From Candidatus Poriferisocius sp. (GTDB taxonomy: Bacteria; Actinomycetota; Acidimicrobiia; Acidimicrobiales; Bin134), in the NCBI RefSeq assembly GCF_965204145.1, contig NZ_OZ241977.1:2114840-2178839 (forward strand): DNA of 64,000 bases, given 5' to 3'. Below the pieces are notes generated by a model, which searched no databases, was not told where the DNA came from, and saw only the letters and a program-made list of their open reading frames with translations. Of this stretch, positions 38,501 to 62,488 are shown piece by piece (positions within the stretch are counted from its first letter, which is position 1; each line of letters starts with the position of its first letter). The position numbers were made by a program, and so were the translations under genes.

Positions 38501-38626
38501 TCATGTTTCAGAGGCGCTCCGGAGGCTCTCCCATTCGTCGAGGAGGCTGGAGTCGGTGGTGCGGAGGTGATTGACGAATGCTTCGACCGGCGCGGTATGC
38601 ATCAGAGCGGCCATGGCAATGCCGGG
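38501..38626 (-). pseudogene. Displaced 3' fragment homologous to the DUF3516 helicase C-terminus (att-associated remnant)
   Basis: The minus-strand frame reads (stop)PGIAMAALMHTAPVEAFVNHLRTTDSSLLDEWESLRSASET(stop). The intact gene end at 47249 reads IPAAAVNDPLASLTAELHTLLRSTDSSLLDEWESLREG. Confidence 0.6.
38520..38567. repeat. Direct repeat copy A (47/48 identical to 47259-47306)
   Basis: cggaggctctcccattcgtcgaggaggctggagtcggtgg T gcggagg. 40 bp are identical, then 1 mismatch, then 7 bp identical. Confidence 0.95.
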
Positions 38627-38671
38627 CTACGAGGGGCCACCACAAATGTGAGCCAGCAGGAACAAATCACT

Positions 38672-43696: not shown

Positions 43697-43725
43697 AATT
43701 TGCTTGAAGTGTAGGTTGGCACGCT

Positions 43726-45501
43726 GTGGCCAGCCTGATTCCCGAGAATATTCCCAGCCGAAACGACATACCCGAAAGGCTCAAGACCGCCGCCCGCCTG
43801 CTGCGCGACGCGACACCCCACGATGTGGTGGTATCACTTGAGCGTACTGGCGACGACACCGCCTCAGCGCAGCGGCGCGATCTTGGGTACGAAGCTTCTG
43901 ACACCAGCAGCGAGTCAGTCCCCTATTTGGTCGTGTTCGACCCGGCCGCGGGCATATTGGTGCTGGAATCCCCCACGCTCCGACCTCTTGGCGCCAACAA
44001 GCGGAGCCGCTTTCGCCGCCAGCCGCGCGTTGACCTCGACCAGGCTCAACAGGCCATCATCGCCAGGGTCATCGGATTGCAACACAGGATCAGGTCGCTG
44101 TTCGTCGCTCGGGCGCTGGCATTGCCTGATGTTCGCCGCGACCAGCCCCTGTCTTTGGCCGACGACAATGTGCCCCGGCTTCATTCAGAAGATTTCCATG
44201 AAGACACCCTGCTGGCAGCCATCCGGCAGATACTCGGCGGGCAACGGCCTCCGCTCAACAACCAGGGCCAAGCACGGGTACGAGCCGAGATCAATCCCAA
44301 GATCGTGATCGGTCGGCAGGGTCAGATGTTCGACACCGGTCCCCAGACATCTGAAGAGATGATTCGGGTTTTGGATCTGACCCAAGAGCGCCTAGCAGAG
44401 CACCTCGGACCCGGCTACCGCCTCATCCGAGGAGTGGCCGGAAGCGGCAAGACCCTGGTCCTCACCCACCGAGCCCGCTATATCGGCGAGAACATGCCCC
44501 GCTGGCGCATCCTACTGGTGTGTTACAACATCGCTCTCGCACAGGCCCTCGAAGCAGAGCTTGAAAATGTGGAGAACGTGACGGTGTCCACCGTCGATTC
44601 CCTGGCCAGCAGGGTCATCCGCCAAGCTGGACGCACGCCTGCACAAGGCCGCGACGATGATGCGTTCCAAGCCCGGCGCAAACAAGCGATCGCCGCGGCC
44701 AGCATCCTCCCACCGGCTAAGAGGTATGACATGGTGCTTGTGGATGAGGCCCAAGATCTGGGCAATTCTGGACTCGACCTCTCGTGGGCCATGGGCAGAC
44801 ACGAACTCGCGGTGGAGCTGCGGCACTTCATCATCGCCTTGGACAGCGCGCAGAACGTCTACCGACGCAAGATGAACTGGAATCCACCGGGTGTGACCGC
44901 CCGGGGCCGGTCGACCATTCTCCGAGAGAACTACCGCAACACGAAGGAAACGCTCGACTTTGCGTTGGGAGCGATTGCGGGAATCGGCCAGCCCAGCGCG
45001 AACCAGGCATCTCCAGATGATCTAGACACCTTGGTCATGCCCGAGGCCGCACTGCGCCATGGTAAGCCCCCGGTTCTTTTGGAGTGCCCCGATTTGAGAA
45101 CCGAGGCTGAGACGCTGACAGAGAAAACAGCCGAATTTCTCCGCAACGGGGCCACACCTGACGACATCGTCATCATGTCGGGGTCGAAAGAGTTGCGGAT
45201 CACCTTGCAGCGAACACTGAGAGCAGAGCGAATTCCAGCACTCGACGCACAGCAGGAGCGGGACCAAGTGGTGTCGATGCGCGGCAGCGTACGGGTGGCC
45301 ACCCTCCAGCTACTGAAGGGACTCGAATACCCTCATGTTCTCATCGGCGGTGTCAACGACATTTGGACAAGAAACGACGACGATGACGAGACCCGTCAAC
45401 GACTTCTTTACGTTGCCATGACCAGGGCGACCGAAACGCTGACCGTCACCTATTCCGGCGATGGCCCGATGGGTCGTTTGCTCCAGGCGGCCCGCCGCTG
45501 A
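43726..45501 (+). CDS. UvrD/Rep-like SF1 helicase with degenerate N-terminal NERD/PD-(D/E)xK-like head
   Basis: GVAGSGKTLVL (Walker A), MVLVDEAQDL (Walker B), ENYRNTKE, LKGLEYPHVLIGG, LLYVAMTRATETL. The N-terminus MASLIPENIPS...PYLVVFDPAAGILVLESP resembles the nuclease head of this class, but the E-x-K lysine is replaced (ESP). GTG start 30 nt after the fusion gene. Confidence 0.8.
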   Translation: MASLIPENIPSRNDIPERLKTAARLLRDATPHDVVVSLERTGDDTASAQRRDLGYEASDTSSESVPYLVVFDPAAGILVLESPTLRPLGANKRSRFRRQPRVDLDQAQQAIIARVIGLQHRIRSLFVARALALPDVRRDQPLSLADDNVPRLHSEDFHEDTLLAAIRQILGGQRPPLNNQGQARVRAEINPKIVIGRQGQMFDTGPQTSEEMIRVLDLTQERLAEHLGPGYRLIRGVAGSGKTLVLTHRARYIGENMPRWRILLVCYNIALAQALEAELENVENVTVSTVDSLASRVIRQAGRTPAQGRDDDAFQARRKQAIAAASILPPAKRYDMVLVDEAQDLGNSGLDLSWAMGRHELAVELRHFIIALDSAQNVYRRKMNWNPPGVTARGRSTILRENYRNTKETLDFALGAIAGIGQPSANQASPDDLDTLVMPEAALRHGKPPVLLECPDLRTEAETLTEKTAEFLRNGATPDDIVIMSGSKELRITLQRTLRAERIPALDAQQERDQVVSMRGSVRVATLQLLKGLEYPHVLIGGVNDIWTRNDDDDETRQRLLYVAMTRATETLTVTYSGDGPMGRLLQAARR

Positions 45502-46787: not shown

Positions 46788-47200
46788 TTCTCGACACCAA
46801 TGTCCTGCTGTGGAGCGTTGTTGGCGACACGTCCAAAATCAGCCTTGAAGTGCAAGCGGAGATCGATGCTCGGGTCTCCGTCGGCAATGCCGCAGTTTCG
46901 GCGATCACGTTCTGGGAGATGAGACATGCGCGTCGCAAGAACAACCCGGCGGTCAAGCTGCCTCCGATTGCCGGGCTTCGACAGGATCTTCTGCGCAGCG
47001 GACTGCGTGAGATTCCGCTCACGGGCGATGTCCTCATCGACGGCATCGAACTCGCTGACAGCGGCTTCCACGACGATCCGATGGACCAGATGATCGTGGC
47101 CACTGCACTGAGCGAGAATCTTCCGCTCGCCACCGCCGACCGCCGAATACAAGCGTGGGCCAATCAAACTGGCCGCTTGGAGATCGTGCCGCTGCGGTAG
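46784..47200 (+). CDS. vapC: PIN-domain toxin (VapC family)
   Basis: MILDTNVLLW..., AITFWEM, MIVATALSENLPLATAD. ATGA overlap with the antitoxin stop. Confidence 0.85.
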   Translation: MILDTNVLLWSVVGDTSKISLEVQAEIDARVSVGNAAVSAITFWEMRHARRKNNPAVKLPPIAGLRQDLLRSGLREIPLTGDVLIDGIELADSGFHDDPMDQMIVATALSENLPLATADRRIQAWANQTGRLEIVPLR

Positions 47201-47248
47201 CCGCGTGCTATCGGTAGGTGACCCGCCCTCCGGTAACCGGGCGGCGAG

Positions 47249-49353
47249 TCACCCCTCGCGGAGGCTCTCCCATTCGTCGAGGAGGCTGGAGTCGGTGGAG
47301 CGGAGGAGGGTGTGGAGCTCGGCGGTGAGACTGGCCAGGGGGTCGTTGACGGCGGCGGCGGGGATGGTTTGGACCAGGGCCTTGTAGCAATCGGACAGGT
47401 AGCGCAATAGCGCTCCTTCGGAGCGCTTGATGCCGTAGCGGGAGACGTACTGGTTGAAGGTGTCTCCGACCTCCATGAGGTCGCGGGCCACCGATTTGGG
47501 CTGGGGCGATCGTGGCCCACCCAGGGGTGGTCGCGGGCAAACACCGCGAAGGCCGGGTCGATGAACTCGGCTTCGGGGCGGGGCCAGGTGACCTCCGACA
47601 GCCGCTCCAAGCGCTCCTCGTAGGGCACCCTCTCGGCCTTGAGCTGGACCATGAGGTCGTCGCGGGCCTTGTCGCGTTGGGCCAGCAGCACCACCGTGGG
47701 GTCTTCCAGCACCGACTCCACCACGCTGAGCGCCTGCCAGTGGTAGTCGGGCGCCTCGATGTCCAACGCTTCCAGTGCCTCCACCGCGAACAGCCCCAGC
47801 GGCTGGTTCAGCCGGAACTCGTCTTGGAGGTCGAGGTTCACCCGCACGGGACGGCCCAAGTCGTCGGGCTCGTCGAGCACTTCGACGATTTCAGCGTCGA
47901 TCAGCGATCGGAACACCCCCACCGCTCGGCGGATGTGGGCCCGCTGGCGGGAGCGGGGCTCGTGGTTGTCAACCAGCAGGCGCTTCATGGCCGCGCAGCC
48001 GTCGCCGGGCCGGTCCAAGACGTTGAGCATCATGGAGTGGCTCACCGCGAAGCTCGACTCCAGGGTCTCGGGGCGACCCTGCCATAACCGGGCCAGCGTG
48101 TCGCCGTCGTAGTGGGCGTAGTTGTGCTCGGGCGGCTTCTTCTTGACCAGCTTGCGCCGCTTGACCGGGTCGGACGCGGCTTTGGCCTCGGCCCGGCGGT
48201 TCTCCACCACGTGCTCAGGGGCCTGCACCCACACGCTGCCCTCCTCGTCGAAGCCCTTGCGGCCGGCCCGGCCCGCTATCTGCTGGAAGTCCCGCACCGA
48301 CAGCACCCGGGTGCGGCGGCCGTCGTACTTGTACAGGCGGGTGAACAGCACGGTGCGGATGGGCACGTTCACCCCCACCCCCAGCGTGTCGGTACCGCAG
48401 ATCAGCTTGAGATGGCCCTCTTGCGCCAGCTTCTCCACCAGCAGCCGGTATTTGGGCAACAACCCCGCGTGGTGTACCCCCACCCCGGCCAGCACGAAGC
48501 GGCGAAGGTCCTTGCCGAACGGGGTGTCGAAACGGAAGCCGCCAATTGCCTCTTTGACCGCAGCCTTGGCTCCGGCATCCAGCACGTCGAGGCTGGTCAG
48601 GCTCTGAGCCTGGGCGGTGGCCTCCCGCTGGGTGAAGTGAACGATGTACACCGGCGCCTTGTCGGCCCTCAGCAACTCGGCAATGGACACGTGCAGCGGC
48701 GTCTCCCGATACTCCACGTCGAGGGGCACCGGCCGCTGGGCCGAGGCCACCAGTGCGGTGGGCCGCCCGCTGCGCTGGCTCAGGTCCCGGCGCAGGGCGG
48801 TGGTATCGCCCAGGGTGGCCGACATCAGCAGGAACTGGGGTTGGCTCAGCTCCAGCAGCGGCACCTGCCAGGCCCAGCCCCGGTCCCGGTCGCCGTAGTA
48901 GTGGAATTCGTCCATCACCACCAGGTCAGCGTCGGCCTCGCTGCCGGAGTGCAGAGCCCGCAGGGCCAGGATCTCGGCGGTGCAGGCGATCACCGGGGCG
49001 TTGGCATTGACGGCAGCGTCCCCGGTGACCATCCCCACCTGCTCGGCCCCGAACGCGGCCACCAGCTCGAAGAACTTCTCGCTGACCAGCGCCTTGATCG
49101 GCGCGGTGTACACCGCCCGCCGTCCCTGGGCCAGCGCGGCGAACGCCCCGGCCAGCGCCACCAGCGACTTGCCCGAGCCGGTGGGGGTGGCCAACACCAC
49201 GTTGTCGCCCCCCAGCAGCCGCAGCACCGCTTCCTCCTGATGGGGGTACAGCTCCAAACCCGCCGCCTCGGCCCAATCGCAGAACGCCCCCAACAGCTCA
49301 TCGGGATCGCCCACATCGGGCATGAACTCGGCGAGAGCAGGCGGCACGGCCAT
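47249..49353 (-). pseudogene. DEAD/DEAH-box helicase with C-terminal DUF3516-like domain, interrupted by a -1 frame change near 47494-47500
   Basis: LATPTGSGKS, VMDEFHY, MSATL, GVHHAGLLP, QIAGRAGRKG. After ...HPWVGHDRPSPN the 0 frame becomes Pro/Ser/Thr-rich nonsense, while the -1 frame (track ORF 47249-47491) continues sensibly: SVARDLMEVGDTFNQYVSRYGIKRSEGALLRYLSDCYKAL...DSSLLDEWESLREG. Confidence 0.8.
47259..47306. repeat. Direct repeat copy B (47/48 identical to 38520-38567), inside the helicase 3' coding end
   Basis: cggaggctctcccattcgtcgaggaggctggagtcggtgg A gcggagg. Confidence 0.95.
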
Positions 49354-49399
49354 AGCGAGAGTGAGGCTAGAGGCAGATCGGGCGTGGGAGGCTACGGGA

Positions 49400-50293
49400 A
49401 TGAAGTTCGGGCTCTATCTCATCGGCAGCGCAACCGGAGTGACGGGACCACCGGCGGCGCCGATCGCCGATCCTGAGTTCTTGGTCGGCTTTGCCCGCCA
49501 CGCCGAGGCGGTGGGATGCGATTCGCTGTTCTTCGCCGACCACATCGTGTTCCCCGCGGCCAAGGAGGCGCCCTATCCCTACGCCGAATCGGGGGCCTAT
49601 CCGTGGGACAACGAGCACACCCAACTGCCCGAGCCGCTGGCATTGATGGCATTCCTGGCCGGGGTCACCGAGTCGCTTCGATTCGGCACCGCGGTGCTGG
49701 TCCTGCCCCAGCGCCACCCGATGCTGCTGGCCAAGCAGCTCGCCACCATCGACGTGCTAGCAGGAGGGCGGGCCGAACTCGGAATCGGCGCGGGGTGGTT
49801 GGCCGACGAGTTCCACGCGCTGGGCTATTCGTTCGACGATCGAGGCGCCCGCACCGACGAGTACATCGACGTCATGCGAGAGCTATGGGCCAGCCCGGTG
49901 GCCAGCTTCGCCGGGCCGACCGTCGCCTTCGACCGCGTCCAGCTCACCACGCACCCCCGCCAGCCCGATGGCATCCCCATCATCGTGGGGGGCCACTCCC
50001 CGCCCGCACTGCGCCGAGCCGGCCAGCGGGGCGACGCCTTTCTGCCCGCCTTCTCGGCGTCGCAGAACCGGGACCGCTGGCCCGAAATGTGGAACGAGGT
50101 CCAGCGCTGGGCAGCCGAGGCGGGACGGGCCGAAGCCTGTGAGCTCCAGGGATTCGGCGCCACCCTCGACGACGCCCGATTCCTGGCCGACTTGGGGGCA
50201 ACCCGCATGATCTACAGCACCCACGACCCCGATTTGGCCTCGGCTCGGGACACCCTGAATCGCTTCGCCGACGAGGTAATCACCCGATTTTGA
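49400..50293 (+). CDS. LLM-class F420-dependent oxidoreductase
   Basis: MKFGLYL..., FADHIVFP, RFGTAVLVLPQRHPMLLAKQLATIDVLAGGRAELGIGAGW, DDRGARTDEYIDVMRELW. Confidence 0.85.
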   Translation: MKFGLYLIGSATGVTGPPAAPIADPEFLVGFARHAEAVGCDSLFFADHIVFPAAKEAPYPYAESGAYPWDNEHTQLPEPLALMAFLAGVTESLRFGTAVLVLPQRHPMLLAKQLATIDVLAGGRAELGIGAGWLADEFHALGYSFDDRGARTDEYIDVMRELWASPVASFAGPTVAFDRVQLTTHPRQPDGIPIIVGGHSPPALRRAGQRGDAFLPAFSASQNRDRWPEMWNEVQRWAAEAGRAEACELQGFGATLDDARFLADLGATRMIYSTHDPDLASARDTLNRFADEVITRF

Positions 50294-50608
50294 CCGCGGG
50301 CCGCGACACCTCCTGTGCCAAATCTGCTGATTTCACGTTGATTTCGTGATTTTTTGAGAAATTTCTTTTACACAGGCTACGTCTCACCCCCACCCATCAA
50401 GTCCCAACCAAAAACCCAGGTCAAACGGTTGCTTTCGGTCGTCAGCTAAGAGATTTCCACAGGCCAATCTGATGCAACCCCACTTATCCCCTCCCCAAGA
50501 CCACTCAAGTGGGAATTATTTGGGAATTTCAATTGCGACAATGCCCGCTCAATTTCAATCAGCGCCCAGACCCAGGGCGCGGTCAGAACAGAGAAATGGA
50601 GCAAACTC

Positions 50609-50824
50609 ATGGCCCAAGCAGTGGAAAATCTCATCGGACCGGCGGTTGCATGCCAGATGCTGGGCGTTGACCAGCAAAGCCTGCTGCGAGGCATCAACGA
50701 CGGCATCGTGCCCGCCTACAGAATCGGCGACTCGGTGAGATTCAGGCCGTCTGAGCTACGCCATCCCGCGCTGTCGGGCCTGGCGGAGCACTATCGCTCC
50801 AAAGACGAGCACTTCGCCGCCTAA
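50609..50824 (+). CDS. Small helix-turn-helix protein, excisionase/MerR-superfamily-like
   Basis: ACQMLGVDQQSLLRGINDGIVPAYRIGDSVRFRPSEL fits the Xis-type HTH_17 pattern. Preceded by about 300 bp of AT-rich non-coding DNA. Confidence 0.5.
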   Translation: MAQAVENLIGPAVACQMLGVDQQSLLRGINDGIVPAYRIGDSVRFRPSELRHPALSGLAEHYRSKDEHFAA

Positions 50825-50896
50825 CCCCACCCCCAAGCCTCTGCCCCCGACTGCGTCCCACCCCCGCGCGGTCGGGGGCGGACGGGGTCTTGGCCG

Positions 50897-52609
50897 CTAG
50901 GGAAGCACGGTCTCGGTGTCGCGGCCGGAGCGCAGAACGGTTCCCGGAGTGGCCCCGGTCACCTGGCCGTCAACCACGATGTCGGTTCCGCCCACCAGCA
51001 CCCGGTGGACGCCCTGGGCGCCGGCGAACAGGCGCATGCAGTCGCCGGGCAGATCGGTGCGGGCCTCGATGGGGTCGGAGGCCACCGTGGCCGGATCGAA
51101 CACCACCAGATCGGCGTGCCAGCCCTCGGCCACCCGGCCCCGGTCCTTGAGCCCGAACAGGCGGGCAGGCACATCGGTCATCAGCCGCACCGCCTCCTCC
51201 AGCGGCAGCAGCCCCCGGTTTCGCACGATGTCGCCCAGGATGATGGTGAAGTAGCGAGTGCCGCACATGCGGTCGAGATGGGCACCGGCGTCGGAGCCCC
51301 CCACGATCACCCGGGGGTCTTGCCAGTGCTCGGTGCGATGAGCCCAACTCTCCTCCGAGTCATCGGCATTGATGGGCCACAAATCGGTGCGCAAGTCATC
51401 AGCCAGCACGATGTCGCACAGGGTGTCGAAGGGTTCTTGGCCCCGCTCCGCGGCGATGTCGCCCACTCGCCGGCCGGTGAGCCCCTCGTTCTGCGGGGCA
51501 TAGGTGGTGCCGATCTCCATGTTCTGCCACTGGGCCATGTGGTAGAAGCCGCCGCTGCCGGTCTGGGCCTGCTCGTTCAGCCACCGTCGGGTCTCCGGGT
51601 CGGCCAGCGCCGCCATCTTCTCCTCATGGGGAAGGTTCATGGTGTCCTTCCACCCCGGCATGTTGTAAAGCGGGCAGTAGGTGGCAAAACACAGCTTCAG
51701 CCCGCCGATGGTGGGCATCGACAACGCCACAATGCGCCCGCCCACCTCAGCCGCCGCATCGGCGGCCCCGAGCTGGTGGTTGGTCCGGTCTTTGGTGTCG
51801 GCGCTAACCGTGAGCACGTTCCAGTTCAGCGGACGCTGGGCTCGGGCCGACATCTGACTCATCAGCTCGATCTCCTCGTCGCTGAACATGCTGAGGCATC
51901 CGGAGGTGATGAACTCCAGCCAGGTCCCAGGGTGGTCGGCCACCGCTCCGGCCAGCGCCAGCACCTCCTCGGTGGAGGAGAATCGGCTGGGGACGGGCTC
52001 GTTGTCGCCATCCCAATGGGTATGGGCCAAAGACGTGGAGAACCCCATGCCGCCGGCAGCCAGCCCATCGTGGAGGGCCCGCACCATCTGGTCGAGCTGA
52101 TCAGAGCTCGCCGGCTGGTTGGCGTCGGGCCCCATCACATAGCGGCGCAGCGCCGAGTGGCCCACCAAGAACCCCGCGTTGACCGCGGTGTTGCCGTCGA
52201 GGCGGTCCAGGAACTGCCCAAACGTCTCCCAATCCCACGGCAGCCCCTGTTCCAGCGCCAACAGGGGCATCCCCTCCACCATGGCCATCATCTCTTGCAG
52301 GTACCGGGCGTCGTCGGGATTCACCGGCGCCAGCGAGAACCCGCAATTGCCGCCCAGCACAGTGGTCACCCCGTGCATCGGCGACGGCGTAGCCGCCGGA
52401 TCCCAGAACAACTGGGCGTCGTAATGGGTGTGAGGATCGATGAAGCCCGGCGACACCACTAGCCCGTCGGCATCCACCGTCCGGGCTGCCGCCCCATCCA
52501 CCTGCCCGATCTCGACGATGCGCCCCTCAGCCACCGCCACATCAGCCACCACCGGCTCGGCCCCGGTCCCGTCCACAACCGCGCCACCCCGAATCACCAG
52601 ATCAAACAT
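50897..52609 (-). CDS. N-acyl-D-amino-acid deacylase (D-aminoacylase) family amidohydrolase
   Basis: MFDLVIRGGAVVDGTGAEP...VSPGFIDPHTHYD, GVTTVLGGNCG, ...VGGSDAGAHLD. Confidence 0.85.
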   Translation of the reverse strand: MFDLVIRGGAVVDGTGAEPVVADVAVAEGRIVEIGQVDGAAARTVDADGLVVSPGFIDPHTHYDAQLFWDPAATPSPMHGVTTVLGGNCGFSLAPVNPDDARYLQEMMAMVEGMPLLALEQGLPWDWETFGQFLDRLDGNTAVNAGFLVGHSALRRYVMGPDANQPASSDQLDQMVRALHDGLAAGGMGFSTSLAHTHWDGDNEPVPSRFSSTEEVLALAGAVADHPGTWLEFITSGCLSMFSDEEIELMSQMSARAQRPLNWNVLTVSADTKDRTNHQLGAADAAAEVGGRIVALSMPTIGGLKLCFATYCPLYNMPGWKDTMNLPHEEKMAALADPETRRWLNEQAQTGSGGFYHMAQWQNMEIGTTYAPQNEGLTGRRVGDIAAERGQEPFDTLCDIVLADDLRTDLWPINADDSEESWAHRTEHWQDPRVIVGGSDAGAHLDRMCGTRYFTIILGDIVRNRGLLPLEEAVRLMTDVPARLFGLKDRGRVAEGWHADLVVFDPATVASDPIEARTDLPGDCMRLFAGAQGVHRVLVGGTDIVVDGQVTGATPGTVLRSGRDTETVLP

Positions 52610-52694
52610 GCCCCCCACAGTAGGCGCGCCCCGTGACAAATCCCCTGGCGAAATGGACCAACCGACACACTGGGTCTACCGGTACAGTTGTTAC

Positions 52695-53140: not shown

Positions 53141-53316
53141 CCTGCTCCGAACGGACCAGAAGAACCGCCGCCACATACGCCGGAAGTGCCGCCGGTATGG
53201 CCCTCATGGTGCTGCTGCTGGGAGCCTCGCCGTGGCTCATCCCCGCCGTTGTCGGAGGCTCGCTCATCGGCTCGTTGACCGCCGCATGGTCGGACCGGAA
53301 GAAGGCCGACTCATGA
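53137..53316 (+). CDS. 59-aa hydrophobic peptide (cistron 3; below the ORF-track size cut-off)
   Basis: Hand translated: MTCSERTRRTAATYAGSAAGMALMVLLLGASPWLIPAVVGGSLIGSLTAAWSDRKKADS. ATGA overlaps at both ends (53137-53140 and 53313-53316). Confidence 0.35.
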   Translation: MTCSERTRRTAATYAGSAAGMALMVLLLGASPWLIPAVVGGSLIGSLTAAWSDRKKADS

Positions 53317-53684
53317 TGGCGATGGTCACCCACGAGCACTACCCCCTGCCCGACATCGACCGAGCTGCCCAGCGGCTCACCCTCACCGTCGCCCAGGCCC
53401 TCCACAACGCCGACCCCGTGGATCTGCTCAGCTCCCTGCTCATCTATCCCAGTTTGTGGGACAAAGCCGCCGCATTGCTGCATTCCATCGTGCTTGGGCA
53501 CCCCCTAGTCGATGGAAACAAGAGGCTCGGCTGGCTGGCCGCCACCACCTTCCTGAGCGTCAACGGACACCCTGTAGACAAGATTTCCGCAGATGCCGCA
53601 TTACACCTCGTGGAGAGCATCGCCATCCATCACCTAGAGGTTGAGGATATTTCCAGCGCTCTACAAGAGTTGGCCCGCGGATAG
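53313..53684 (+). CDS. doc: Doc/Fic-family toxin (cistron 4)
   Basis: YPSLWDKAAALLHSIVLGHPLVDGNKRLGWLAATTFLSVNG carries the Doc variant of the Fic motif H-x-x-x-D-G-N-K-R. Confidence 0.75.
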   Translation: MMAMVTHEHYPLPDIDRAAQRLTLTVAQALHNADPVDLLSSLLIYPSLWDKAAALLHSIVLGHPLVDGNKRLGWLAATTFLSVNGHPVDKISADAALHLVESIAIHHLEVEDISSALQELARG

Positions 53685-54298: not shown

Positions 54299-54721
54299 AT
54301 GCCGCCACAAGTAGTGGTTGACACCATGGTCGCCAGTGCCTGGCTCGCCAACCGCCAGGTAGAGCGCCAGGTTCGTTGGTTGAGGGTTCTGGCGCAGGCC
54401 CTATGGATACTCCCCTTCGTGGTCGTCGCCGAGATGCGCTTCGGGGCCGAGGTGGCCGGTTGGGGCCTTCGACGCAGAGCGAGGCTGGAGAACGTGATAG
54501 CGCGTGCCGCAGTAGTGCCTCCGCTTGAAGACATCACCGATGCGTATGTCGATCTACGAGCCTGGAGCGTTCGCAGCGGACACGGTCTGAGCGCCAAGAG
54601 CCACGAAGCCGACCGGTGGGTCGCCGCTGTCGCTATTGCCGGAGAACTCCCGCTCGCCACTGAGGACTCGATCTTCGACGACGTTCCTATGCTACGGCTC
54701 CTCGATCCAGATGGGGCCTAG
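54299..54721 (+). CDS. vapC: PIN-domain toxin (VapC family)
   Basis: VVVDTMVASAW..., FVVVAEMRFG, HEADRWVAAVAIAGELPLATED. Confidence 0.8.
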   Translation: MPPQVVVDTMVASAWLANRQVERQVRWLRVLAQALWILPFVVVAEMRFGAEVAGWGLRRRARLENVIARAAVVPPLEDITDAYVDLRAWSVRSGHGLSAKSHEADRWVAAVAIAGELPLATEDSIFDDVPMLRLLDPDGA

Positions 54722-54849
54722 ACGTTCTGCCCGCAGAGATTGCTAGCTCGACTGGGTAGGTCGGCTGTGGGGTGCGCATTGTCATTGTTTGAAGTGGCCA
54801 TGTTGGCCTGTAGCATGGCTCGCAGCCGTTGCGTACTGCGCGACACCAG

Positions 54850-57800
54850 ATGAACAAAACACAAATCAGGCTATTCCTCGGCCAGGAGATCGAGGATCCC
54901 GTAGAGCAAAAACTCATCAGCCGCTTGCGCCTTGATTTAGAGCAGCGCGGTGTTAGCGGTGCCTTGTACGCGAACTTCATCCCGCGACCCGGACAGCAGC
55001 GCCAGATCGACCTGCTCGTCCACACTGAAACCCACACAGCGCATGTAGAGATCAAGGGTTTCAATGCCAACTACCCGGTGCGCGGCCATGTGAACGGTCT
55101 TTGGGTTCAGATCCTTGCTGACGGGACAGAGCGGCAGATTACAAACGGCAGCTCGCAGGCCATTCGTGGCACCTACGCGATCAGCGACGCCATGCGAGAC
55201 CTTGCCAGGAAAGAGGGCGTCGCTGCGGTAGATAACAATTTTTCCAGTTATATCGACACGATCGTTGGATTGTGGGAAGCCATCCCCGAAGGATCAGAAA
55301 TTGAGCCACGAGCCCATGTGACCGTACTGGGTTACCAAGACCTCCTCGAGCGGCTAGTCAAACCCGGGCCATGTGTGCCGTGGACGCAAGAAGAGTGGGA
55401 TGAATTCGCCCGCCGCCACAGCCTCTTCCAGCCCGAAGACATCTCGCCTTCCGAGCAGAGCAGGCGCGACAGCCTCGAAATCATCGCTGATTACCGTCCA
55501 AGGGCCCGAGCCAGTCTCTCAGACGGTCTCGGGCCTCTGGTCGATCTGGGCGCAACTGACAACGATGGCACTGAATTGGCGGCAGACGACATCGACAACA
55601 TGGTCGCCGCTGGCAGAGTGGTCGCGATAACAGGCCACTCGGGAAGCGGCAAGACCTTTTTCGCTCGACATTTGGTTGTGAGACACTGCGATGCTGGTCG
55701 CTTGGTGGTCTGGGTTCGGGCCGCTGACTACGAGGGTCGATTCAGCGACTTGCTCAACTTGGCCACAGCTCCGTACAGCATCGAGCGGCGAAAAGACGTC
55801 ATTCGAGCCGCCGAAGAAACTGGAGTGGGCATATCTGTAGTGCTCGATGGTCTGAACGAGTGCCCGGAGAGCGAACGGACCGAACTACTGAAGCAATTGA
55901 AGGCGTTTTGCTTGCGACACTCCGCGGGAGTGCTGGTTACAAGCACTGTTGAGGAAGGTCTGGTCGGCACGCTAGGCGCGAAAATCTTGAACTCCAACGA
56001 GCCCGATGCAGAGACCAGGCTGGCGATCCTCCGCTCTTATGGCGCCCGACAGCCAGAGCGCATAAGCGACCAGTTCCGCTCGCCGCACGAACTGGCAATC
56101 GCCGCGGAGTGCGAAAGCGAGTTGGCCAATGGCGCATCGGTCGCAGACCTGCACGACGCCTTCGTCCGCCGACATGCCCCCACCGTACGAGTCCGAGCCG
56201 GCCTACGCTCCCTCGCCGCCAATCTTCACTCCCAATTCAGAACCAGCATGCCGCAACTCGATGCTGCGTCAGTCCTTAACTCGCCAAGCCTTGAATCTGA
56301 TGCCCGATTCGTCGACGAGGTCTTAGCCAATCCACTCATAGGGATTGACCGCCACCGTGTCCGTTTCCGCCACGAGCTATTCGGCCAATTCCTCGCCGCC
56401 GAGGATCTCGTCCGCTCCTCCAGCACCAGCCAACGCCTCGCTGCTCATCTCGACCTTCCGGTCAACAAGCCGCTCACTCAGACTGCCCTTCAAATCGAGC
56501 GAAACAGCCACCGGATCTGGGACGTGATCAAGGCGCTCTGCGATGAGTGGCTAATGCTCAGGGCACTCACAGGCGATTACGGCCCCGAAGTTGCCGCTCT
56601 CGCCGCTGCGGACATCCGAGACATTCTCCATGTCGGCATCGCCGCAGCCAACCCAGAGAACGCCTCCTTCGAGGCCTTCAAATCCGAAGATCAGGAGGGC
56701 TTTGCCTTAGGCGGGCGTTGGTCGACAAGCCGCCGGTGGTCAGAGACCGAACTGAAGCTGCTGGCCGCCGCAGGCAGGGGCTCGTACCGAGGCCTGCTCG
56801 TCGAAGAAGTCTGCGAGCTGATCGACAAGACCGATGAGCTGTGCCAGACCCAGGCGCGGCTCCTGCAAGCCGACGGCATAACCAACCCCATCTCGACGGT
56901 CGTAGAAGCGACGCTCAGCCAAATGGCGCACCAAGTAGACCGGGAGAATTGCGGGCTCGCTATGCCCTACGTCGCCGTCGCGTTCGAGTATGCCGCAATG
57001 GAAGCCCCGTTCAGTGGCCTTCGGGGCAGCACCGGGCTAGCAGGACGCTTGGCCAACGGCGCAGGCGACTACTCGTGGGGCCGCTACTACCTGGCGATGC
57101 TTGCAGTCAACCCATTCGATCCCACCGACCAAGCTGTCTTCGCCTCCCTGCTGCGTCGGGCTTGGGACGCCGGCGGATCCCCCTTGCAACTTAAAGCCCT
57201 ACACACAGCCACAGACTTAGGGCGTCACGGCGGAACCCAAGACCCGCACCGCTCCGAAATCGTCGACGTACTGCGCTCGATCGATACGAGCAATCTGATT
57301 CTGAGTACCTCGCTCCTCGAAGCACTCGCCGAATTCGACGAGATTGAAAGCGAAACCACAGTCGAGCAAGTTCACGACCGTATCCGACAAACCATCTCGC
57401 GCCCCGAAGATATGGAGAGCTGCCGTGCGGCCCGGAGCATCGTGGCCATGCAATACGAAACCCAGGAAGTCGTCGGCCCCTACCGCGAAGCAATCGGAGA
57501 ACTCACTGATACAGATTGGGCATGGCTTCTTACCATGGCCGCGCGTGGCTCCGATCCCAACTCATGGGACATCGATTCCCTGTTGGAGCAACTGTCGAAC
57601 CTCGTCCCCACTGGGAACGCCGCTCTCGATAACGCTGCCAAAGATGTGTTCGCGTCGTACCTAGACGGCCCGCCCGAAGACTCCACTATGCCGCAGGTGG
57701 CGTCAGCCGCATGTCGGGCTGCCATAAGCGGGTGGGCCCAATTCGAGTCTGAGATTCCACCAGGGCCAAATGACCCGACCCCAGCGCAAAGAAGCTGGCA

Positions 57801-58233
57801 CCTTATTGCCAGTCTGCTGCTCCGCCACGAGCAAGACGACGCCGCAGTGGATGCTGAAACACTCTGGAGCGCCCTCCTCTCCGAACCGGACCAAACAGTC
57901 GCGACCCTGGCCCACATCGACAGCACCGACAAGGAGCACTTGTGGGACCGCCAAGCACGAGCGCATTATCACCGCCGCGACCTCCCTCAACTAGCCGAAG
58001 ACTACCCAGAGTCCATGCGCCGCCTATTCGAGTGGGCGCTCGACAACCTGGCAGACATTCCCACTCACCCCATCATCCACAGAAAAGGCGTATTGGACTT
58101 CGCGATACGGATGCTCGGACTTGTAGGCACCGAGACCACCGCCGAGAAACTACGTGTCTACACCCTAGACCCGAAGGCCGGCAGCACCGCCGTCCAAGCC
58201 ATCAGGCAGATCAACAATCGAGCCGCCTCATGA
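54850..58233 (+). CDS. STAND NTPase: N-terminal NERD (nuclease-related) domain + NACHT P-loop module + about 700-aa helical-repeat C-terminal region
   Basis: NERD: GQEIEDPVEQKLISRL...QIDLLVHTETHTAHVEIKGF. NACHT: VVAITGHSGSGKTFFARHL (Walker A), ISVVLDGLNECPESE (Walker B). The Leu/Ala-rich C-terminus has no motif I recognise. ATG 54850. Confidence 0.8.
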   Translation: MNKTQIRLFLGQEIEDPVEQKLISRLRLDLEQRGVSGALYANFIPRPGQQRQIDLLVHTETHTAHVEIKGFNANYPVRGHVNGLWVQILADGTERQITNGSSQAIRGTYAISDAMRDLARKEGVAAVDNNFSSYIDTIVGLWEAIPEGSEIEPRAHVTVLGYQDLLERLVKPGPCVPWTQEEWDEFARRHSLFQPEDISPSEQSRRDSLEIIADYRPRARASLSDGLGPLVDLGATDNDGTELAADDIDNMVAAGRVVAITGHSGSGKTFFARHLVVRHCDAGRLVVWVRAADYEGRFSDLLNLATAPYSIERRKDVIRAAEETGVGISVVLDGLNECPESERTELLKQLKAFCLRHSAGVLVTSTVEEGLVGTLGAKILNSNEPDAETRLAILRSYGARQPERISDQFRSPHELAIAAECESELANGASVADLHDAFVRRHAPTVRVRAGLRSLAANLHSQFRTSMPQLDAASVLNSPSLESDARFVDEVLANPLIGIDRHRVRFRHELFGQFLAAEDLVRSSSTSQRLAAHLDLPVNKPLTQTALQIERNSHRIWDVIKALCDEWLMLRALTGDYGPEVAALAAADIRDILHVGIAAANPENASFEAFKSEDQEGFALGGRWSTSRRWSETELKLLAAAGRGSYRGLLVEEVCELIDKTDELCQTQARLLQADGITNPISTVVEATLSQMAHQVDRENCGLAMPYVAVAFEYAAMEAPFSGLRGSTGLAGRLANGAGDYSWGRYYLAMLAVNPFDPTDQAVFASLLRRAWDAGGSPLQLKALHTATDLGRHGGTQDPHRSEIVDVLRSIDTSNLILSTSLLEALAEFDEIESETTVEQVHDRIRQTISRPEDMESCRAARSIVAMQYETQEVVGPYREAIGELTDTDWAWLLTMAARGSDPNSWDIDSLLEQLSNLVPTGNAALDNAAKDVFASYLDGPPEDSTMPQVASAACRAAISGWAQFESEIPPGPNDPTPAQRSWHLIASLLLRHEQDDAAVDAETLWSALLSEPDQTVATLAHIDSTDKEHLWDRQARAHYHRRDLPQLAEDYPESMRRLFEWALDNLADIPTHPIIHRKGVLDFAIRMLGLVGTETTAEKLRVYTLDPKAGSTAVQAIRQINNRAAS

Positions 58234-58566
58234 GACCCGCCGTAGACCACTTCCTGACCCCTAGAAACAGCATGTCCAAGCGCTCAACGAGGATGCCATA
58301 ACAGATCGTAGGTCCGTAGATCGAGCCACGGTGGCGGAGTCGAGCACTGCCAATTCAACCTCGATGCCCTTGGACACTACATCTCGGTCCTTGAAACCGA
58401 ACAGGTGAATGAGGCTGTCGGCTATGAATTACAGGCACTCCTCCACCGATAGCAGACAATGGTCGCCTTCACAGTCAGGCAGCATCTCAACTGGGAACAG
58501 GGTTCCGCAGTCAATCGACTGGAAATGGCAACTGATGGCTGTCAGTCGCTCAGGCATACTGGCTTC

Positions 58567-59283
58567 ATGGAACCCACTGAGCAGATCTTGGAATGGGCCC
58601 GTGAGCACATTGACAAGCTATCTGAGGACATGACATGGACCCCGTCGCGATACGGAACCTTTGGTTACTGGCAAGCCATCAACCCACAAGTTCGGGGTGT
58701 GATTCGTGCACGGGCAACCGCTGCATTGGATTTCTTAGAACGCTTCACTGGACCCTCGTCCCTCTGGACCAAGACAGCTCACGACGTGTTTGAGAACAAT
58801 GGCGACAATCAGTCAATGGAGACCGGGGCTAGGGCAATAGGTGATGTACTTGAAGAGTGGTCCAATCTCGTTCGATCTGGCCAAATTAGGCCAAGACTCA
58901 CTGAAACGCTCGCTCTTCGACAGATTGCTTCAACCGAACTCCTTGAACAAGTTTGTGCACTAAACGCCGATCACAGTGTCACGCCTGCTGCACCCATCGT
59001 CCTGGCGGGTGCCGCTTTGGAGATTGCATTACGTTCAGCAGTAGAAGAACTCGGGCTCAGCATTTCAGGTCAGCCTGGCATCTCAACGTACGCAAGAACA
59101 CTCCGCAGCGCTGAAGTGCTGAACAAGCAGCACATTAAGGACATAGAACAAATGGCAGGGCTTCGTAACCAGGCTGCTCACGGGGAACACGATGCACTCA
59201 GTCGTGAGCGGTCGGGTCTGATGGAACAGCAAGTCAATATCTTCCTTAGAACCCTGGAGGAAGTAATCGAGAAATCGGCCTAG
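58567..59283 (+). CDS. Hypothetical protein with DUF4145-like C-terminus (tentative)
   Basis: C-terminal IEQMAGLRNQAAHGEHDALSRERSGLMEQQVNIFLRTLEEV resembles the R-N-x-x-A-H core of DUF4145, a domain common in restriction/defence neighbourhoods. Lower GC. Start uncertain (58525 or 58567). Confidence 0.45.
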   Translation: MEPTEQILEWAREHIDKLSEDMTWTPSRYGTFGYWQAINPQVRGVIRARATAALDFLERFTGPSSLWTKTAHDVFENNGDNQSMETGARAIGDVLEEWSNLVRSGQIRPRLTETLALRQIASTELLEQVCALNADHSVTPAAPIVLAGAALEIALRSAVEELGLSISGQPGISTYARTLRSAEVLNKQHIKDIEQMAGLRNQAAHGEHDALSRERSGLMEQQVNIFLRTLEEVIEKSA

Positions 59284-60839
59284 TCTCTATCTGTCCAAGA
59301 GGGGCGGGTCGACGCGGGGTGAGCTTGGGAGGGGTGGGCGGGTGGGGGGCTGATGTTGGTTTGGTAGTGAGTGGCTAGGGCTTTAGCCAACTGGTGGGAA
59401 TAGTGGGTGAGGCTTGCCTGATCGAGGGGTGGAGTTTTGCTGTTGGGTGTGTTGGTCAAAGTACCGTGGGCCGACTCGTAGGCATGAGTCATGGCATCGT
59501 AGCGATCAAGGATCAGATTCTTGGTGTGATACTCCCCATGCTTCTTCCTATCTTTACGTTCCACAATAGCAAAAGTGTCCATGATATATATGACGTCTTC
59601 GCGATTAACGCCATATAAGTGAAACATGAGGGCATCTAATTCGGCAAGGATCAGCGCTCGGCGTTCCTCGTCCCAGACAAATGGAGGACCAAAGCAATCC
59701 AGGGAATTTGCAAAACTCCTCAAATCCCACGCAGTATAAACTAATTCTAGAATTGCAGCAGAAATCATCGTTTCATGGGTGCGGACTTGATTACAAGACA
59801 AAACAGGGAATTGCTTCAAGTAACCCAGCGTAAGATTCGTCCCTCCTATCTTCTGTCGAGCGATGTAGTCCAACACAAAAGAGTTCAACACTGACAGGAG
59901 CAAATGAGGAGCTCGTGCGTCTCGGATTAGTGGTTCAGAATGCCCAACTGCAGCTAGTGGTAAAGCAGTACAAACTAACGTTCGTCCATTTGTGGAGCTA
60001 CTCGTAACGTTGTTGAATCCAAGAAGCCACCAGGAATTCATGCCAATTCGTTTGACAACCTCTTTTTCATTGACCCAATAATAGGGCTTCGCAGTAAACT
60101 GTGGCATCATTTTCTCTTCTAAACTCAAATACTGTGGTTGATTCTTCCGGTGTATCGCGGTAGGGCTCTTGATGACGTTTGCAGCCCGATGATCATAGAA
60201 AGATACCATCTTTCCTTCATACAATGGAAGGAACCGTTCTTCGAACCCCTCGTCATGTTGTCGCACATAGTGGTTGCCTTCCATCATCAAACCAGCCGCA
60301 TCTAACATTTCACTCTCATGAAATAAACCAGAATCATTGCTCATGTGGAACATACACTGGTAGGACATATTCCATGGGTTGCCTTCAGGACTCCCATCAA
60401 TGACAAGAGGGGCGACTCGACGGTAGATTGCCTTTGTTATTTCTGCATCTCGACTTGTTCGAAATACGGGACATGTTTTTGTATTCGGATTAAGAGAATA
60501 GAAATCACTTGTTGTTAGGGAAAAAGTTCTGTCTGCGTCATCAAGATCAGAAATTGTTTGCGCAAAGAAAGAAAACACGGCCTGATTCACCGGCGAATCA
60601 GAACCGGATAGCGTGAGCAGACAGAATTTCGTTCCCTTGTGAACTCCGTGAAAGAAATTCTCCCGATTTTCAAAATCATATAGGGAGACTAGCGAACTTT
60701 TTTCAACGAAGTCCTGAAAAAGATATTGGGACTTATATCGGATGGTGGCGAAAGCCATGCCTGAGCAGGCGTTATAGAGAAAGACAGGAAATATGGACGG
60801 ATTGAACAAGTTGTCGGCGCGCCGGAAAACGGCGGTCAT
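59280..60839 (-). CDS. Type IIG / PglX-like DNA methyltransferase homologue lacking the N-terminal catalytic half (possible truncated remnant)
   Basis: LVSLYDFENRENFFHGVHKGTKFCLLTL and FLPLYEGKMVSFYDHRAANV match the post-catalytic and target-recognition part of Eco57I/COG1002-type N6-adenine methylases. No motif I (GxG) or NPPY/W is present in the ORF or in the upstream frames. Very low GC. Confidence 0.55.
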   Translation of the reverse strand: MTAVFRRADNLFNPSIFPVFLYNACSGMAFATIRYKSQYLFQDFVEKSSLVSLYDFENRENFFHGVHKGTKFCLLTLSGSDSPVNQAVFSFFAQTISDLDDADRTFSLTTSDFYSLNPNTKTCPVFRTSRDAEITKAIYRRVAPLVIDGSPEGNPWNMSYQCMFHMSNDSGLFHESEMLDAAGLMMEGNHYVRQHDEGFEERFLPLYEGKMVSFYDHRAANVIKSPTAIHRKNQPQYLSLEEKMMPQFTAKPYYWVNEKEVVKRIGMNSWWLLGFNNVTSSSTNGRTLVCTALPLAAVGHSEPLIRDARAPHLLLSVLNSFVLDYIARQKIGGTNLTLGYLKQFPVLSCNQVRTHETMISAAILELVYTAWDLRSFANSLDCFGPPFVWDEERRALILAELDALMFHLYGVNREDVIYIMDTFAIVERKDRKKHGEYHTKNLILDRYDAMTHAYESAHGTLTNTPNSKTPPLDQASLTHYSHQLAKALATHYQTNISPPPAHPSQAHPASTRPSWTDRD

Positions 60840-60992
60840 ATACAAGCATCCGAATGACGGAACGCTGAACGGAGTCGATGGCGATATCGACCGCTGGGTG
60901 GACGACAAAGGAGTGCTGCACGTGTTCTTGGCACCGGGAGGATCGTTCCGGCTGAGCGATGAGCCAGACCGGGTTTGTACACCTAATACGAA

Positions 60993-61297: not shown

Positions 61298-61363
61298 CAA
61301 AGTCCGGGGAGCCCCAATCCTTCTAGCTGGGATTTCTTGTGCATCGGGGCTCTCCGGACTTTG
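61298..61363. repeat. 18-bp inverted repeat (17/18) with 30-nt spacer upstream of the IS1595 transposase
   Basis: caaagtccggGgagcccc (61298-61315) and ggggctcTccggactttg (61346-61363). Confidence 0.85.
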
Positions 61364-61483
61364 GACCACTGGGGTCGGTTGATAGAACTCCTCTTGCACA
61401 AGAATTACGGCAGGAAGGAGTGCGGAGTGCAACGAAATACACTGAGGATAAACTGTCATAGGTGCGTGATAACGTGGCGTCCG

Positions 61484-62488
61484 ATGAATGAAGAACGGAA
61501 GCGCCACAAAGCTCCTGGTAGAGCAGATCGCAACGGCATATCGCTATTCGACCTCATGGGAATGTTCCCCACTGACAAGGCAGCCGAGCAATGGCTGATC
61601 GAGCGCCGCTGGCCGAAGAAAGTCGCCTGCGTATCGTGCGGTTCGGTCAACGTGCAGACAGGAGCGAAGCACCGCACGATGCCGTTCCGCTGCCGCGAGA
61701 AGGGATGCGCAAAGAAGTTCAGCGTCAGGACCGGCACGGTCATGGAGGCATCCAATCTCGGTTACCAGACCTGGGTGTTCGCCATCTACATCGTGATGAC
61801 CAACTTGAAGGGCGTGTCGTCCATGAAGCTGCACCGCGACCTGGGCATCGGCCAGAAGGCGGCTTGGTTCCTGCTCCATCGTCTGCGCGAAGCAATGGCC
61901 GGCGAGGACATCCTGTTCTGCGGTCCCGTAGAGGCTGACGAAACCTACGTCGGCGGCTTGGAGAAGAACAAGCACAAGGACAAGCGCATGAAGGCAGCGG
62001 GCGGGCCTGTCGGCAAGGCCATCGTCGCCGGTGTGAAGGACCGCTGCTCCAACAGGGTGGCTGCCAGAGTCGTTCCCGACACGTCAGCCGACTCGCTGAT
62101 CGGGATGGTCTCAGACCACGCCGAGAAGGGAACGCTGGTGCTCACAGACGAGGCGAAGGGCTACCTTCCGCTCCGCAAGAAAGGCTACGGCCACAGGGCC
62201 GTAAAGCACTCGGTTGGCCAGTACGTAGACGGCATGGCACACACGAACGGGATCGAGTCGTTCTGGTCGCTGTTGAAACGCGGCTATCACGGCACCTATC
62301 ACCAGATGTCGCCGGAGCACCTTCATCGCTACGTGGCCGAGTTCCAGCACCGCCACAACGAGAGGCCATTCGACACCATCATTCAGATGGAGAGGGTGGT
62401 CAAGGACATGGACGGCAAGAGGCTCACCTACGAGGAGTTGATCGCAGACGGCGTGCGCGCCAACAGGGTCAGGGAGACGGCTTGTTGA
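61484..62488 (+). mobile_element. IS1595-family (ISXO2-like) transposase gene; element ends not determined
   Basis: N-terminal Zn-ribbon RRWPKKVACVSCGS...FRCREKGCAKKFSVRTGT, then WVFAIYIVMTNLKGVSSMKLHRDLGIGQKAAWFLLHRLREAM, DETYVGG, TDEAKGY, NGIESFWSLLKRGYHGTYHQMS. I could not find matching terminal inverted repeats. Confidence 0.8.

Follow-up and report, generated by a model that had tools for sequence, protein, structure and literature searches.

The 64,000-nucleotide stretch of DNA analysed here (the window: positions 2,114,840 to 2,178,839 of contig NZ_OZ241977.1, Candidatus Poriferisocius sp.) carries on its forward strand, at 54850..58233 including the stop codon, a gene for a 1127-residue STAND protein that joins a NERD nuclease head, a NACHT-type switch and a C-terminal alpha-solenoid. 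We consider it probable, at roughly 0.7, that this protein is a single-gene, stand-alone sensor of the bNACHT/Avs type, that is, an NLR-like protein directed against phages or other mobile genetic elements. The layout of effector, STAND switch and sensor, which an initial annotation had read from the sequence, is borne out by Pfam matches across the family, invariant residues, an NLR-like structural model, the swapping of heads among relatives and the defence or mobile-element context of the gene in unrelated lineages.

The gene itself is well delimited by the list of open reading frames, its homologues, the ratio of nonsynonymous to synonymous substitution rates (dN/dS) and an AlphaFold2 model. 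Its reading frame on the + strand is uninterrupted and ends at 58233, with TTG 54829 and ATG 54850 listed as candidate starts. The ATG, which yields 1127 residues, was preferred because the homologue consensus begins with 'MN...I.LF' and because the protein collection holds an identical 1127-residue entry (P0001); the 1127-residue protein that had been described at 54850-58233 agrees with that list. This is a real gene and not a chance reading frame, since 75 database clusters are homologous to its product, the majority over the full length, its orthologues contain no stop codons and dN/dS for the whole gene is 0.25-0.30. The gene has a GC content of about 60%. A scan of 54500-59500 for sigma-70 promoters and intrinsic terminators gave nothing above shuffled expectation, which is no surprise in a high-GC actinobacterium, and tblastn of the 1127-residue protein against the 64-kb window found neither a second copy nor a fragment.

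The central part of the protein (residues 235-523; 55552..56418, + strand) was assigned, from Pfam family hits, Foldseek searches and invariant residues, to a NACHT-type STAND NTPase module composed of a nucleotide-binding domain (NBD), a first helical domain (HD1) and a winged-helix domain (WHD). It contains the Walker A motif GHSGSGKT (residues 262-269, nt 55633-55656), the Walker B motif VVLDGLNE (residues 330-337, nt 55837-55860) and the WHD motif RFRHELFGQFLAAEDL (residues 505-520, nt 56362-56409), and the Pfam P-loop/NACHT match covers residues 247-366. Conservation was judged from an alignment of 42 relatives at 21-91% identity, to which all such counts below refer. Walker A residues G265, G267 and K268 are invariant in all 42; in Walker B, D333 is likewise present in 42 of 42, G334 in 36 and E337 in 30. 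Position 336 is Asn in 35 relatives, where the canonical NACHT motif has Asp; the definition of this Walker B motif, of the NACHT 'DG.DE' type (hhhhD, then a small residue and an acidic one further on), reportedly goes back to Koonin and Aravind in 2000 and to Leipe and colleagues in 2004. In the winged-helix motif R-F-R-H-E-L-F-G-Q-F-L-A-A, F506 and H508 are kept by every relative and A517 by 41 of them, and the model places it in a beta-hairpin followed by a helix (strand segment 497-506, helix 509-523), the topology expected of a WHD. H508 is the putative equivalent of the ADP-contacting H443 of NLRC4. NACHT is also the commonest specific NTPase family among the relatives, 23 of which match it at E<=1e-3, and its gathering threshold is passed by P0014 (33.7 bits), P0100 (32.1), P0211 (29.5) and P0062 (27.6).

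The predicted fold points in the same direction. The full-length AlphaFold2 model, built from a 48-sequence alignment, has a mean pLDDT of 88.7 and a pTM of 0.71, and its top Foldseek matches in the PDB are NLRC4 (4kxf, E 1.4e-6), NLRP9 (7wbt, 7.5e-6) and the NACHT domain of NLRP3 (9hg4, 2.9e-5, with a TM-score of 0.47 on the target). These animal NACHT receptors outrank both the NB-ARC plant receptor RPP1 and Cdc6/ORC, and the best match among predicted viral structures is a prophage 'NLR family' protein.

The N-terminal region (residues 1-170; 54850..55359, + strand) is a predicted NERD / PD-(D/E)xK nuclease domain, recognized through Pfam NERD, conserved residues and the relatives. Among the latter, 33 of 42 match NERD at E<=1e-3, with a best value of 2.8e-10, and scores of relatives reach 41.1 bits. 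The segment QIDLLVHTETHTAHVEIKGF that had been quoted for this module lies at residues 52-71, just as GHSGSGKT and VVLDGLNE are in place at residues 262-269 and 330-337; its core, QIDLLV...VEIK, occupies nt 55003-55062. The four predicted catalytic residues are nearly invariant (E19 in 41 of 42 relatives, D54 in 42, E67 in 41 and K69 in 41), and the model has E19 on helix 17-32, D54 on strand 53-59 and the E67-x-K69 pair on strand 63-69, in keeping with the constellation E ... D ... (D/E/Q)xK of an alpha-beta-beta-beta core. In several relatives the PADLOC models PDC-M16A and MkoA match the NERD domain only, that is, the N-terminal ~120 residues, and a phage 'Nuclease-related domain protein' in BFVD is a weak structural match (E 0.054, rank 35). 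A helical linker (residues 171-234; 55360..55551, + strand), with helices 180-189 and 200-224 in the model, leads from this head to the NTPase, and the junction at which relatives exchange their effectors lies within it, at about residues 195-202.

The C-terminal sensor (residues 524-1127, 604 residues; 56419..58230, + strand) was delimited by a separate model and by a sensor profile. It opens with an HD2-like helical segment of ~75 residues, after which comes an ARM/HEAT-like alpha-solenoid that includes two small beta-hairpins; the sensor-only model (pLDDT 89.2, pTM 0.82) is made almost entirely of helical hairpins. Its fold matches are generic ARM/HEAT solenoids, namely designed armadillo proteins, importin-beta, PP2A-A and CAND1, all with TM-scores below 0.3, and no solved bacterial STAND sensor is found among the 50 listed PDB matches of the sensor model. 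A Pfam scan found no domain after residue 524, in agreement with the earlier description of a C-terminus with no recognized motif. That description had also called this part Leu/Ala-rich, which is true, but its 13.2% Ala and 11.3% Leu are barely above the 11.9% and 10.9% of the entire protein and mostly reflect the high GC content. The profile and structure searches of the three regions that had been suggested as a check returned NERD and NACHT at the level of the family, an NLR-like fold and a generic solenoid.

A profile of the sensor alone, searched against 1.84 billion representative proteins, retrieved 1051 representative clusters, 554 of them at E<=1e-30, and the majority are proteins of ~1100 residues with the sensor at ~525-1105, that is, of identical architecture. 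In members of other lengths the same NTPase-sensor chassis carries other heads: P0059 is 50% identical to the window protein over residues 202-1090, yet its NERD is replaced by a TIR_2 domain (68.8 bits), P0211 aligns from residue 195 onwards and has a weakly Cap4-nuclease-like N-terminus (22.2 bits, below the gathering threshold of 26.2), and P0112 and P0127 have an N-terminal region of ~400 residues with no assigned domain. A variable N-terminal effector is therefore combined with one C-terminal sensor, as NERD, TIR, weak Cap4-like and unassigned heads; the exchange is clear for TIR and weakly supported for the Cap4-like head. Exchange of effectors at a fixed junction on an NTPase-sensor chassis is a signature of defence STANDs (Kibby et al.; Lee et al.). 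A further protein with the same sensor, P0100 (1397 residues), has an odd double-switch architecture with tandem STAND NTPases, an nSTAND3 domain (69.6 bits, residues 277-424) followed by a NACHT domain (32.1 bits, residues 538-676).

The distribution of the family is patchy, as if spread by horizontal gene transfer. Scanning one genome per species, we found 33 loci, the close ones all in Acidimicrobiia; the closest named relatives, at 91% and 80% identity, belong to Candidatus Poriferisocius sp., a sponge-associated lineage of that class. One locus, at 30% identity, belongs to Micromonospora; Obscuribacterales, Alphaproteobacteria (Parvibaculum, Rhodovibrionaceae), Azotimanducaceae and others hold full-length relatives at ~23-25%, and additional groups, among them Spirochaetia, Acidobacteria and Mesorhizobium, gave partial matches. 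Homologues are also borne on plasmids of Mycobacterium, Agrobacterium, Rhizobium and Sinorhizobium: the copy on a plasmid of M. lentiflavum ATCC 51985 (WP_036474281.1), annotated as 'ATP-binding protein', adjoins genes for Phd, an HNH endonuclease and an AAA ATPase with a helicase, and the plasmid copies of A. fabrum (WP_121692445.1 on pAt12D13b), Rhizobium, Sinorhizobium and Bosea, annotated as 'NERD domain-containing protein', lie near VapC pairs. No match was obtained by tblastn against 50,697 phage genomes.

Defence and mobile-element genes recur around these relatives, although no neighbour is conserved across the annotated loci of the family. In the Poriferisocius loci L001 and L040, PIN or Fic toxin-antitoxin modules lie upstream of the NACHT gene, and downstream of it stands, in convergent orientation, an intact MmeI-type methylase/restriction enzyme of 1391-1403 residues, followed by an SNF2 helicase (966 residues); L040 ends within the SNF2 gene, and L001 additionally encodes a 1789-residue DEAD/Helicase_C/DUF1998 protein that makes this cluster DISARM-like. 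Elsewhere the company is different. At L002 it includes AbiEii, a 1488-residue helicase and a complete type I restriction-modification system, at L037 two GmrSD genes, DUF7380/EMARD and an AAA ATPase, and at L042 an M78 peptidase, a ResIII helicase and a HEPN_AbiU2-AAA_15 gene; L043 has a DUF4258/DUF2283 toxin-antitoxin pair with an HNH gene, toxin-antitoxin pairs and HNH being present at L044 and L045 as well. L041 is an integrase/relaxase element, and L003, the TIR variant, sits on a contig rich in insertion sequences.

Such mobility could also be expected of a STAND NTPase with no immune role, one serving signalling or regulation, or the maintenance, addiction or competition of plasmids and other elements, with NERD processing element DNA. 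Homologues on plasmids and on the integrase/relaxase element fit this explanation, as do weak matches of 7 of the 42 relatives to IstB_IS21-like ATPases and a few contexts that are not obviously defensive. Defence genes, too, are commonly borne by mobile elements, and the IstB matches span the P-loop ATPase core only, most of them scoring under the gathering cut-off. A large number of STAND clades have no link to defence (Lee et al. 2026), but in this family no DNA-binding or helix-turn-helix output domain was found, the head has been swapped for TIR and possibly for a Cap4-like nuclease, both hallmark effectors of abortive infection, and a fast-evolving sensor is coupled to a conserved NTPase, as is typical of immune receptors. 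We therefore regard a non-immune role as unlikely.

Several observations weigh against an immune receptor of this kind and deserve to be set out together. The initial annotation had named both the NERD and the NACHT modules, and both stand at the level of the family, through its Pfam matches, its conserved PD-(D/E)xK and NTPase residues and the NLR-like fold. The window protein alone scores less well: its NERD match (22.2 bits, residues 19-115) is a marginal pass right at the gathering threshold of 22.1, and its NACHT (20.7 bits, threshold 26.7) and nSTAND3 (24.4, threshold 27.2) matches, like that to NPHP3_N (23.7, threshold 24.8), stay below theirs. Because these scores are marginal, the NERD-NACHT assignment rests on the family and on the fold. 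The fold search was indeed needed for the classification, since against PDB chains neither phmmer nor hmmsearch went beyond matches to ABC and AAA proteins at the level of Walker A; PADLOC, NCBIfam and PHROGs, run on the window protein, gave generic P-loop matches only, and the PADLOC defence models yielded nothing beyond a P-loop-level match to mad8. A second point concerns catalysis. Residues 362-366 (nt 55933-55947) read LVTST, and position 366, where the motif pattern would place the arginine of the NACHT sensor-1 'TSR', is Thr in 23 relatives, Gln in 14, Ile in 2 and Ser in 2, with Arg in at most one. As the expected arginine is not seen at this position across the family, the NTPase cycle may differ from that of a canonical NACHT protein; R343, kept in 36 of 42 relatives, or R449, invariant in all 42, might stand in for it. 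Finally, the generic ARM/HEAT likeness of the sensor is uninformative about its ligand, the surroundings of L038 and the left flank of L043 look weakly defence-like or not defence-like at all, and no experimental work on the family was found in the literature.

Some of these points could also be taken to mean that the gene is decaying or non-functional, or that its NERD domain has lost catalysis and acts solely as an oligomerization or adaptor module: the NERD score is marginal, the expected sensor-1 arginine is absent, and a degraded methylase and an insertion sequence lie nearby (see below). The pattern of selection speaks otherwise. By the Nei-Gojobori method, applied to comparisons with four relatives (three from Poriferisocius, the fourth at 54% identity), dN/dS is 0.12-0.25 in the NACHT module and reaches 0.30-0.36 in the sensor, compared with 0.06 for the flanking amidohydrolase (dN 0.020, dS 0.32). 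The ratio is well below 1 in every domain, and the gene is under purifying selection, with the sensor evolving fastest and the NACHT module slowest. The reading frame is full length and free of frameshifts, the four PD-(D/E)xK residues and the Walker A and B motifs are intact and vary little or not at all among relatives down to ~21% identity, and the residue other than Arg at position 366 is a trait of the whole family and not a lesion of this copy. Loss of function is thus very unlikely.

The same comparisons revealed a mosaic gene, with divergence uneven along its length. Relative to L005, the first ~600 codons differ at 0-4% of nucleotides and codons 600-1127 at 8-17%; dS is 0.09 in the upstream PIN gene and 0.04-0.09 in the low-divergence half, compared with 0.32 in the housekeeping amidohydrolase, so that a low-divergence block (54299-56650) abuts a diverged one (56650-58230). 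Relative to L004, the low-divergence block extends to about codon 225, with another step at about codon 750. The window allele has an effector-NACHT half nearly identical to that of one relative and a diverged sensor. These two comparisons suggest that recombination took place recently, with breakpoints close to the boundaries of domains, and that it would reshuffle sensor alleles.

If the protein is an NLR-like receptor, its mechanism can be sketched by analogy with Avs3, Avs4 and Avs7, bNACHT25 and NLRC4, on which the proposed binding of a ligand, oligomerization, nuclease substrate and phage phenotype are modelled. At rest it would be a monomer, with the NACHT module closed around ADP, held partly through His508, and with NERD inactive. 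The alpha-solenoid would then bind a protein derived from a phage or a mobile element, either directly or through a host factor; binding would open the NACHT module, ADP would be exchanged for ATP (K268, D333) and the protein would oligomerize. Oligomerization could bring the NERD PD-(D/E)xK domains (E19, D54, E67, K69) together into an active nuclease, which would degrade phage and/or host DNA and so abort the infection.

In the window, too, the NACHT gene lies within a defence island. Upstream are a Doc/Fic toxin of a type II toxin-antitoxin pair (53298..53684, + strand; Pfam Fic 41.2 bits, NCBIfam DOC_P1 34.5 bits), also carried by L040, and a VapC PIN toxin (54299..54721, + strand; Pfam PIN 45.7 bits), which is kept upstream of the NACHT gene in L001 and is itself preceded by a small reading frame, ending at 54294, that is likely its antitoxin. 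Downstream comes a HEPN-like gene (58459/58567..59283, + strand) with the R-x4-H motif RNQAAH and weak matches to Pfam HEPN_RiboL-PSP and HepT (E 0.013). It is followed on the opposite strand by a 5'-truncated remnant of an MmeI-type (type IIG / DISARM-like) methyltransferase-restriction enzyme (59280..60908, - strand), identified by the PADLOC REase_MTase_IIG profile, which it matches at C-terminal positions only, and by alignment of its residues 60-542 to the last ~483 residues of the intact 1391-1403-residue enzymes of L040, L004 and L001. The remnant lies in a low-GC stretch (0.46-0.50) beside an IS1595-family transposase (61337..62488, + strand; Pfam DDE_Tnp_IS1595, 133.8 bits), and looks like a defence system in the course of decay; the transposase may be linked to the loss of the remaining methylase/helicase operon. 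The toxin-antitoxin modules, methylase remnant and insertion sequence are thus as the initial annotation had described them; the gene it called DUF4145-like, however, has no Pfam match to DUF4145 over 58459-59283 and weakly matches HEPN families instead.

This arrangement raises the question of whether the NACHT gene belongs to a larger system, either as an accessory or back-up of the adjacent MmeI-type/SNF2/DEAD-DUF1998 operon or as one half of a two-gene system with the HEPN-like gene. In three Poriferisocius-type genomes it stands tail-to-tail with an intact MmeI-type enzyme, beyond which SNF2 and helicase genes follow in both gene-called loci (L001 and L040), and a 'backup' nuclease role has been proposed for NERD inside the BREX type 2 protein PglW (PMC12839542). 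The adjacency of methylase and helicase is nevertheless limited to L001/L005, L004 and L006/L040, which is not the conserved linkage that a DISARM-like accessory would show; relatives at 22-54% identity stand beside quite different systems (type I restriction-modification, GmrSD, Abi, toxin-antitoxin and integrative elements), and in the window the operon is truncated to a remnant while the NACHT gene has stayed whole and is subject to purifying selection. Membership in the adjacent MmeI/SNF2/DUF1998 system was rejected on these grounds. The HEPN-like gene does follow the NACHT gene in the window and, as a homologue of 68% identity, in L004 and L006/L040, but nowhere else: it is absent from L001/L005, the 91% relative, and from every distant locus, so that it was rejected as an obligate partner, and in the window at least 226 nt separate the two genes. 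Both forms of dependence on a neighbour are consequently quite unlikely. From the lack of a conserved neighbour, and from its being intact even where the methylase operon is reduced to a remnant, we conclude that the NACHT gene works alone. The HEPN-like gene, for its part, stands alone, and its presence varies among Poriferisocius islands that are otherwise syntenic.

Further features of the window were noted along the way. The flank of the island at 47164-52639, which comprises a DEAD/DUF3516 helicase, a luciferase-like monooxygenase, a small excisionase-like HTH_17 gene (50609-50824) and the amidohydrolase, is conserved in L040, and of its genes at least HTH_17 and the amidohydrolase recur in L001. 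Directly beyond the amidohydrolase the variable defence cargo sets in, an indication of a fixed hotspot for integration. Farther upstream, a 1709-residue reading frame (38567-43696, + strand) fuses an RNase_T exonuclease (residues 46-212) to a DinG-like helicase (ResIII, Helicase_C_2) and a RecQ helicase (DEAD, Helicase_C, RecQ_Zn_bind). It is preceded by an HNH_2 endonuclease gene (37542-38459, - strand) and followed by a 591-residue UvrD-like helicase (43726-45501, + strand) with an unassigned N-terminus of ~210 residues; the GC content of this region, 0.58-0.64, is below the window average, and the unusual triple-fusion cluster as a whole (37542-45501) could be another defence or repair module.

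How much of this is new is a matter of degree. PADLOC v2.0.0 includes models for AVAST I-V and bNACHT01/09, and among all its models the window protein matched only mad8 (25.9 bits, at the P-loop), BrxD, mad3 and PDC-S73, and the 42 relatives only mad8, PDC-M16A, MkoA and HEC-01B. The suggestion in the initial annotation of an undescribed variant holds in so far as the family and its sensor are unmatched there; as a combination of domains it does not, given that the geometry of a restriction endonuclease and NACHT is listed in Table S1 of Kibby et al., NERD is among the effectors of Lee et al., and bNACHT25/32 have been characterized by experiment. The novelty is therefore modest: a large, widespread, sensor-defined family, absent from PADLOC and unusual at the sensor-1 position, in a field where nuclease-NACHT fusions have already been catalogued. 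A bolder proposal, that this sensor-defined NERD-NACHT family forms a new class of Avs/bNACHT-type receptors with a novel trigger, a differing NTPase cycle and a specificity renewed by recombination, is tentative and on present evidence rather doubtful. The trigger might be novel because the ARM/HEAT-like sensor resembles no solved STAND sensor; a conserved actinophage or sponge-symbiont-phage protein, or a cue mediated by a host factor, may be considered as candidates. Should the protein prove active, it would add one more experimentally tractable family of NLR-like receptors, with a NERD output and with homologues on plasmids of culturable Mycobacterium, Agrobacterium and Rhizobium, and it would illustrate the assembly and rearrangement of defence islands in uncultured sponge symbionts: this one brings together toxin-antitoxin pairs, an NLR-like sensor and a HEPN gene with a DISARM-like operon that is decaying beside an insertion sequence.

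Comparison with known systems places the protein among bacterial relatives of the NLRs. NERD is a recognized defence nuclease in Mokosh, PglW and HEC-02, and it is listed (as pfam08378) among the effector domains in the census of Lee et al. 2026, which covers 589 STAND clades and 684 sensor clusters; WP_419847288, WP_420619095 and MCQ3812484 do not appear in the first clade of Table S2 of that census. Mokosh MkoA, BREX type 2 PglW, HEC-02B and PDC-M16A share with the window protein a NERD PD-(D/E)xK domain as presumed nuclease effector, but pair it with a helicase, a kinase or an ABC-ATPase and have neither NACHT nor a solenoid, so that the likeness is confined to NERD. NLRC4, NLRP3 and NLRP9 share the NBD-HD1-WHD fold, the Walker A motif, the 'DG..E' Walker B motif and the F-x-H...FLAA signature of the WHD, whereas their identity to the window protein is 10-14%, their sensor is made of leucine-rich repeats, of which there are none here, their CARD or PYD adaptor contrasts with an enzymatic effector, and the window family has Thr or Gln at the expected sensor-1 arginine. 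The Avs proteins (SeAvs3, EcAvs4, SeAvs7) are similar in combining an effector, a STAND NTPase and a large helical-repeat sensor, in exchanging effectors and in residing in defence islands; in them, tetramerization induced by the ligand assembles a PD-(D/E)xK nuclease of the Cap4 or Mrr type (Lee et al. 2026). Unlike these, the window protein has an NTPase structurally closest to the animal NLRC4/NLRP receptors and an ARM/HEAT-like sensor that is not demonstrably of the TPR type, and no Avs structure is among the top 50 listed PDB matches of either the full-length or the sensor model.

The nearest counterparts in layout are bNACHT25 and bNACHT32 of E. coli (clade 6 of Kibby et al.), which likewise join a PD-(D/E)xK nuclease, a NACHT module and an all-helical sensor in one polypeptide. 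In these proteins, built as a PD-(D/E)xK DNase, NACHT and a helical NCH1 sensor, the nuclease is required for defence and activation leads to the degradation of DNA, sensing by bNACHT25 being mediated by DnaJ (PMC12169576). Mutation of the histidine equivalent to NLRC4 H443 hyperactivates bNACHT25 (Kibby et al.), and the WHD histidine of the window protein lies at nearly the same residue number: it is H508 here, and in bNACHT25 S508 lies two residues after the H443-equivalent histidine. They differ from the window protein in having an Mrr-like restriction endonuclease in place of NERD and in their host, E. coli as opposed to an acidimicrobial sponge symbiont; the likeness is one of layout. In the rows of Table S1 of Kibby et al. 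that were covered, none of the organisms or accessions linked to the family appears, but KAF0246040.1 (clade 2) is described there with a restriction endonuclease at residues 18-111 and NACHT from residue 235, compared with NERD at 19-115 and NACHT from about 235 in the window protein, so that their domain geometries are essentially the same. The gene fits closely into the current picture of bacterial STAND immunity, and would leave that picture unchanged.

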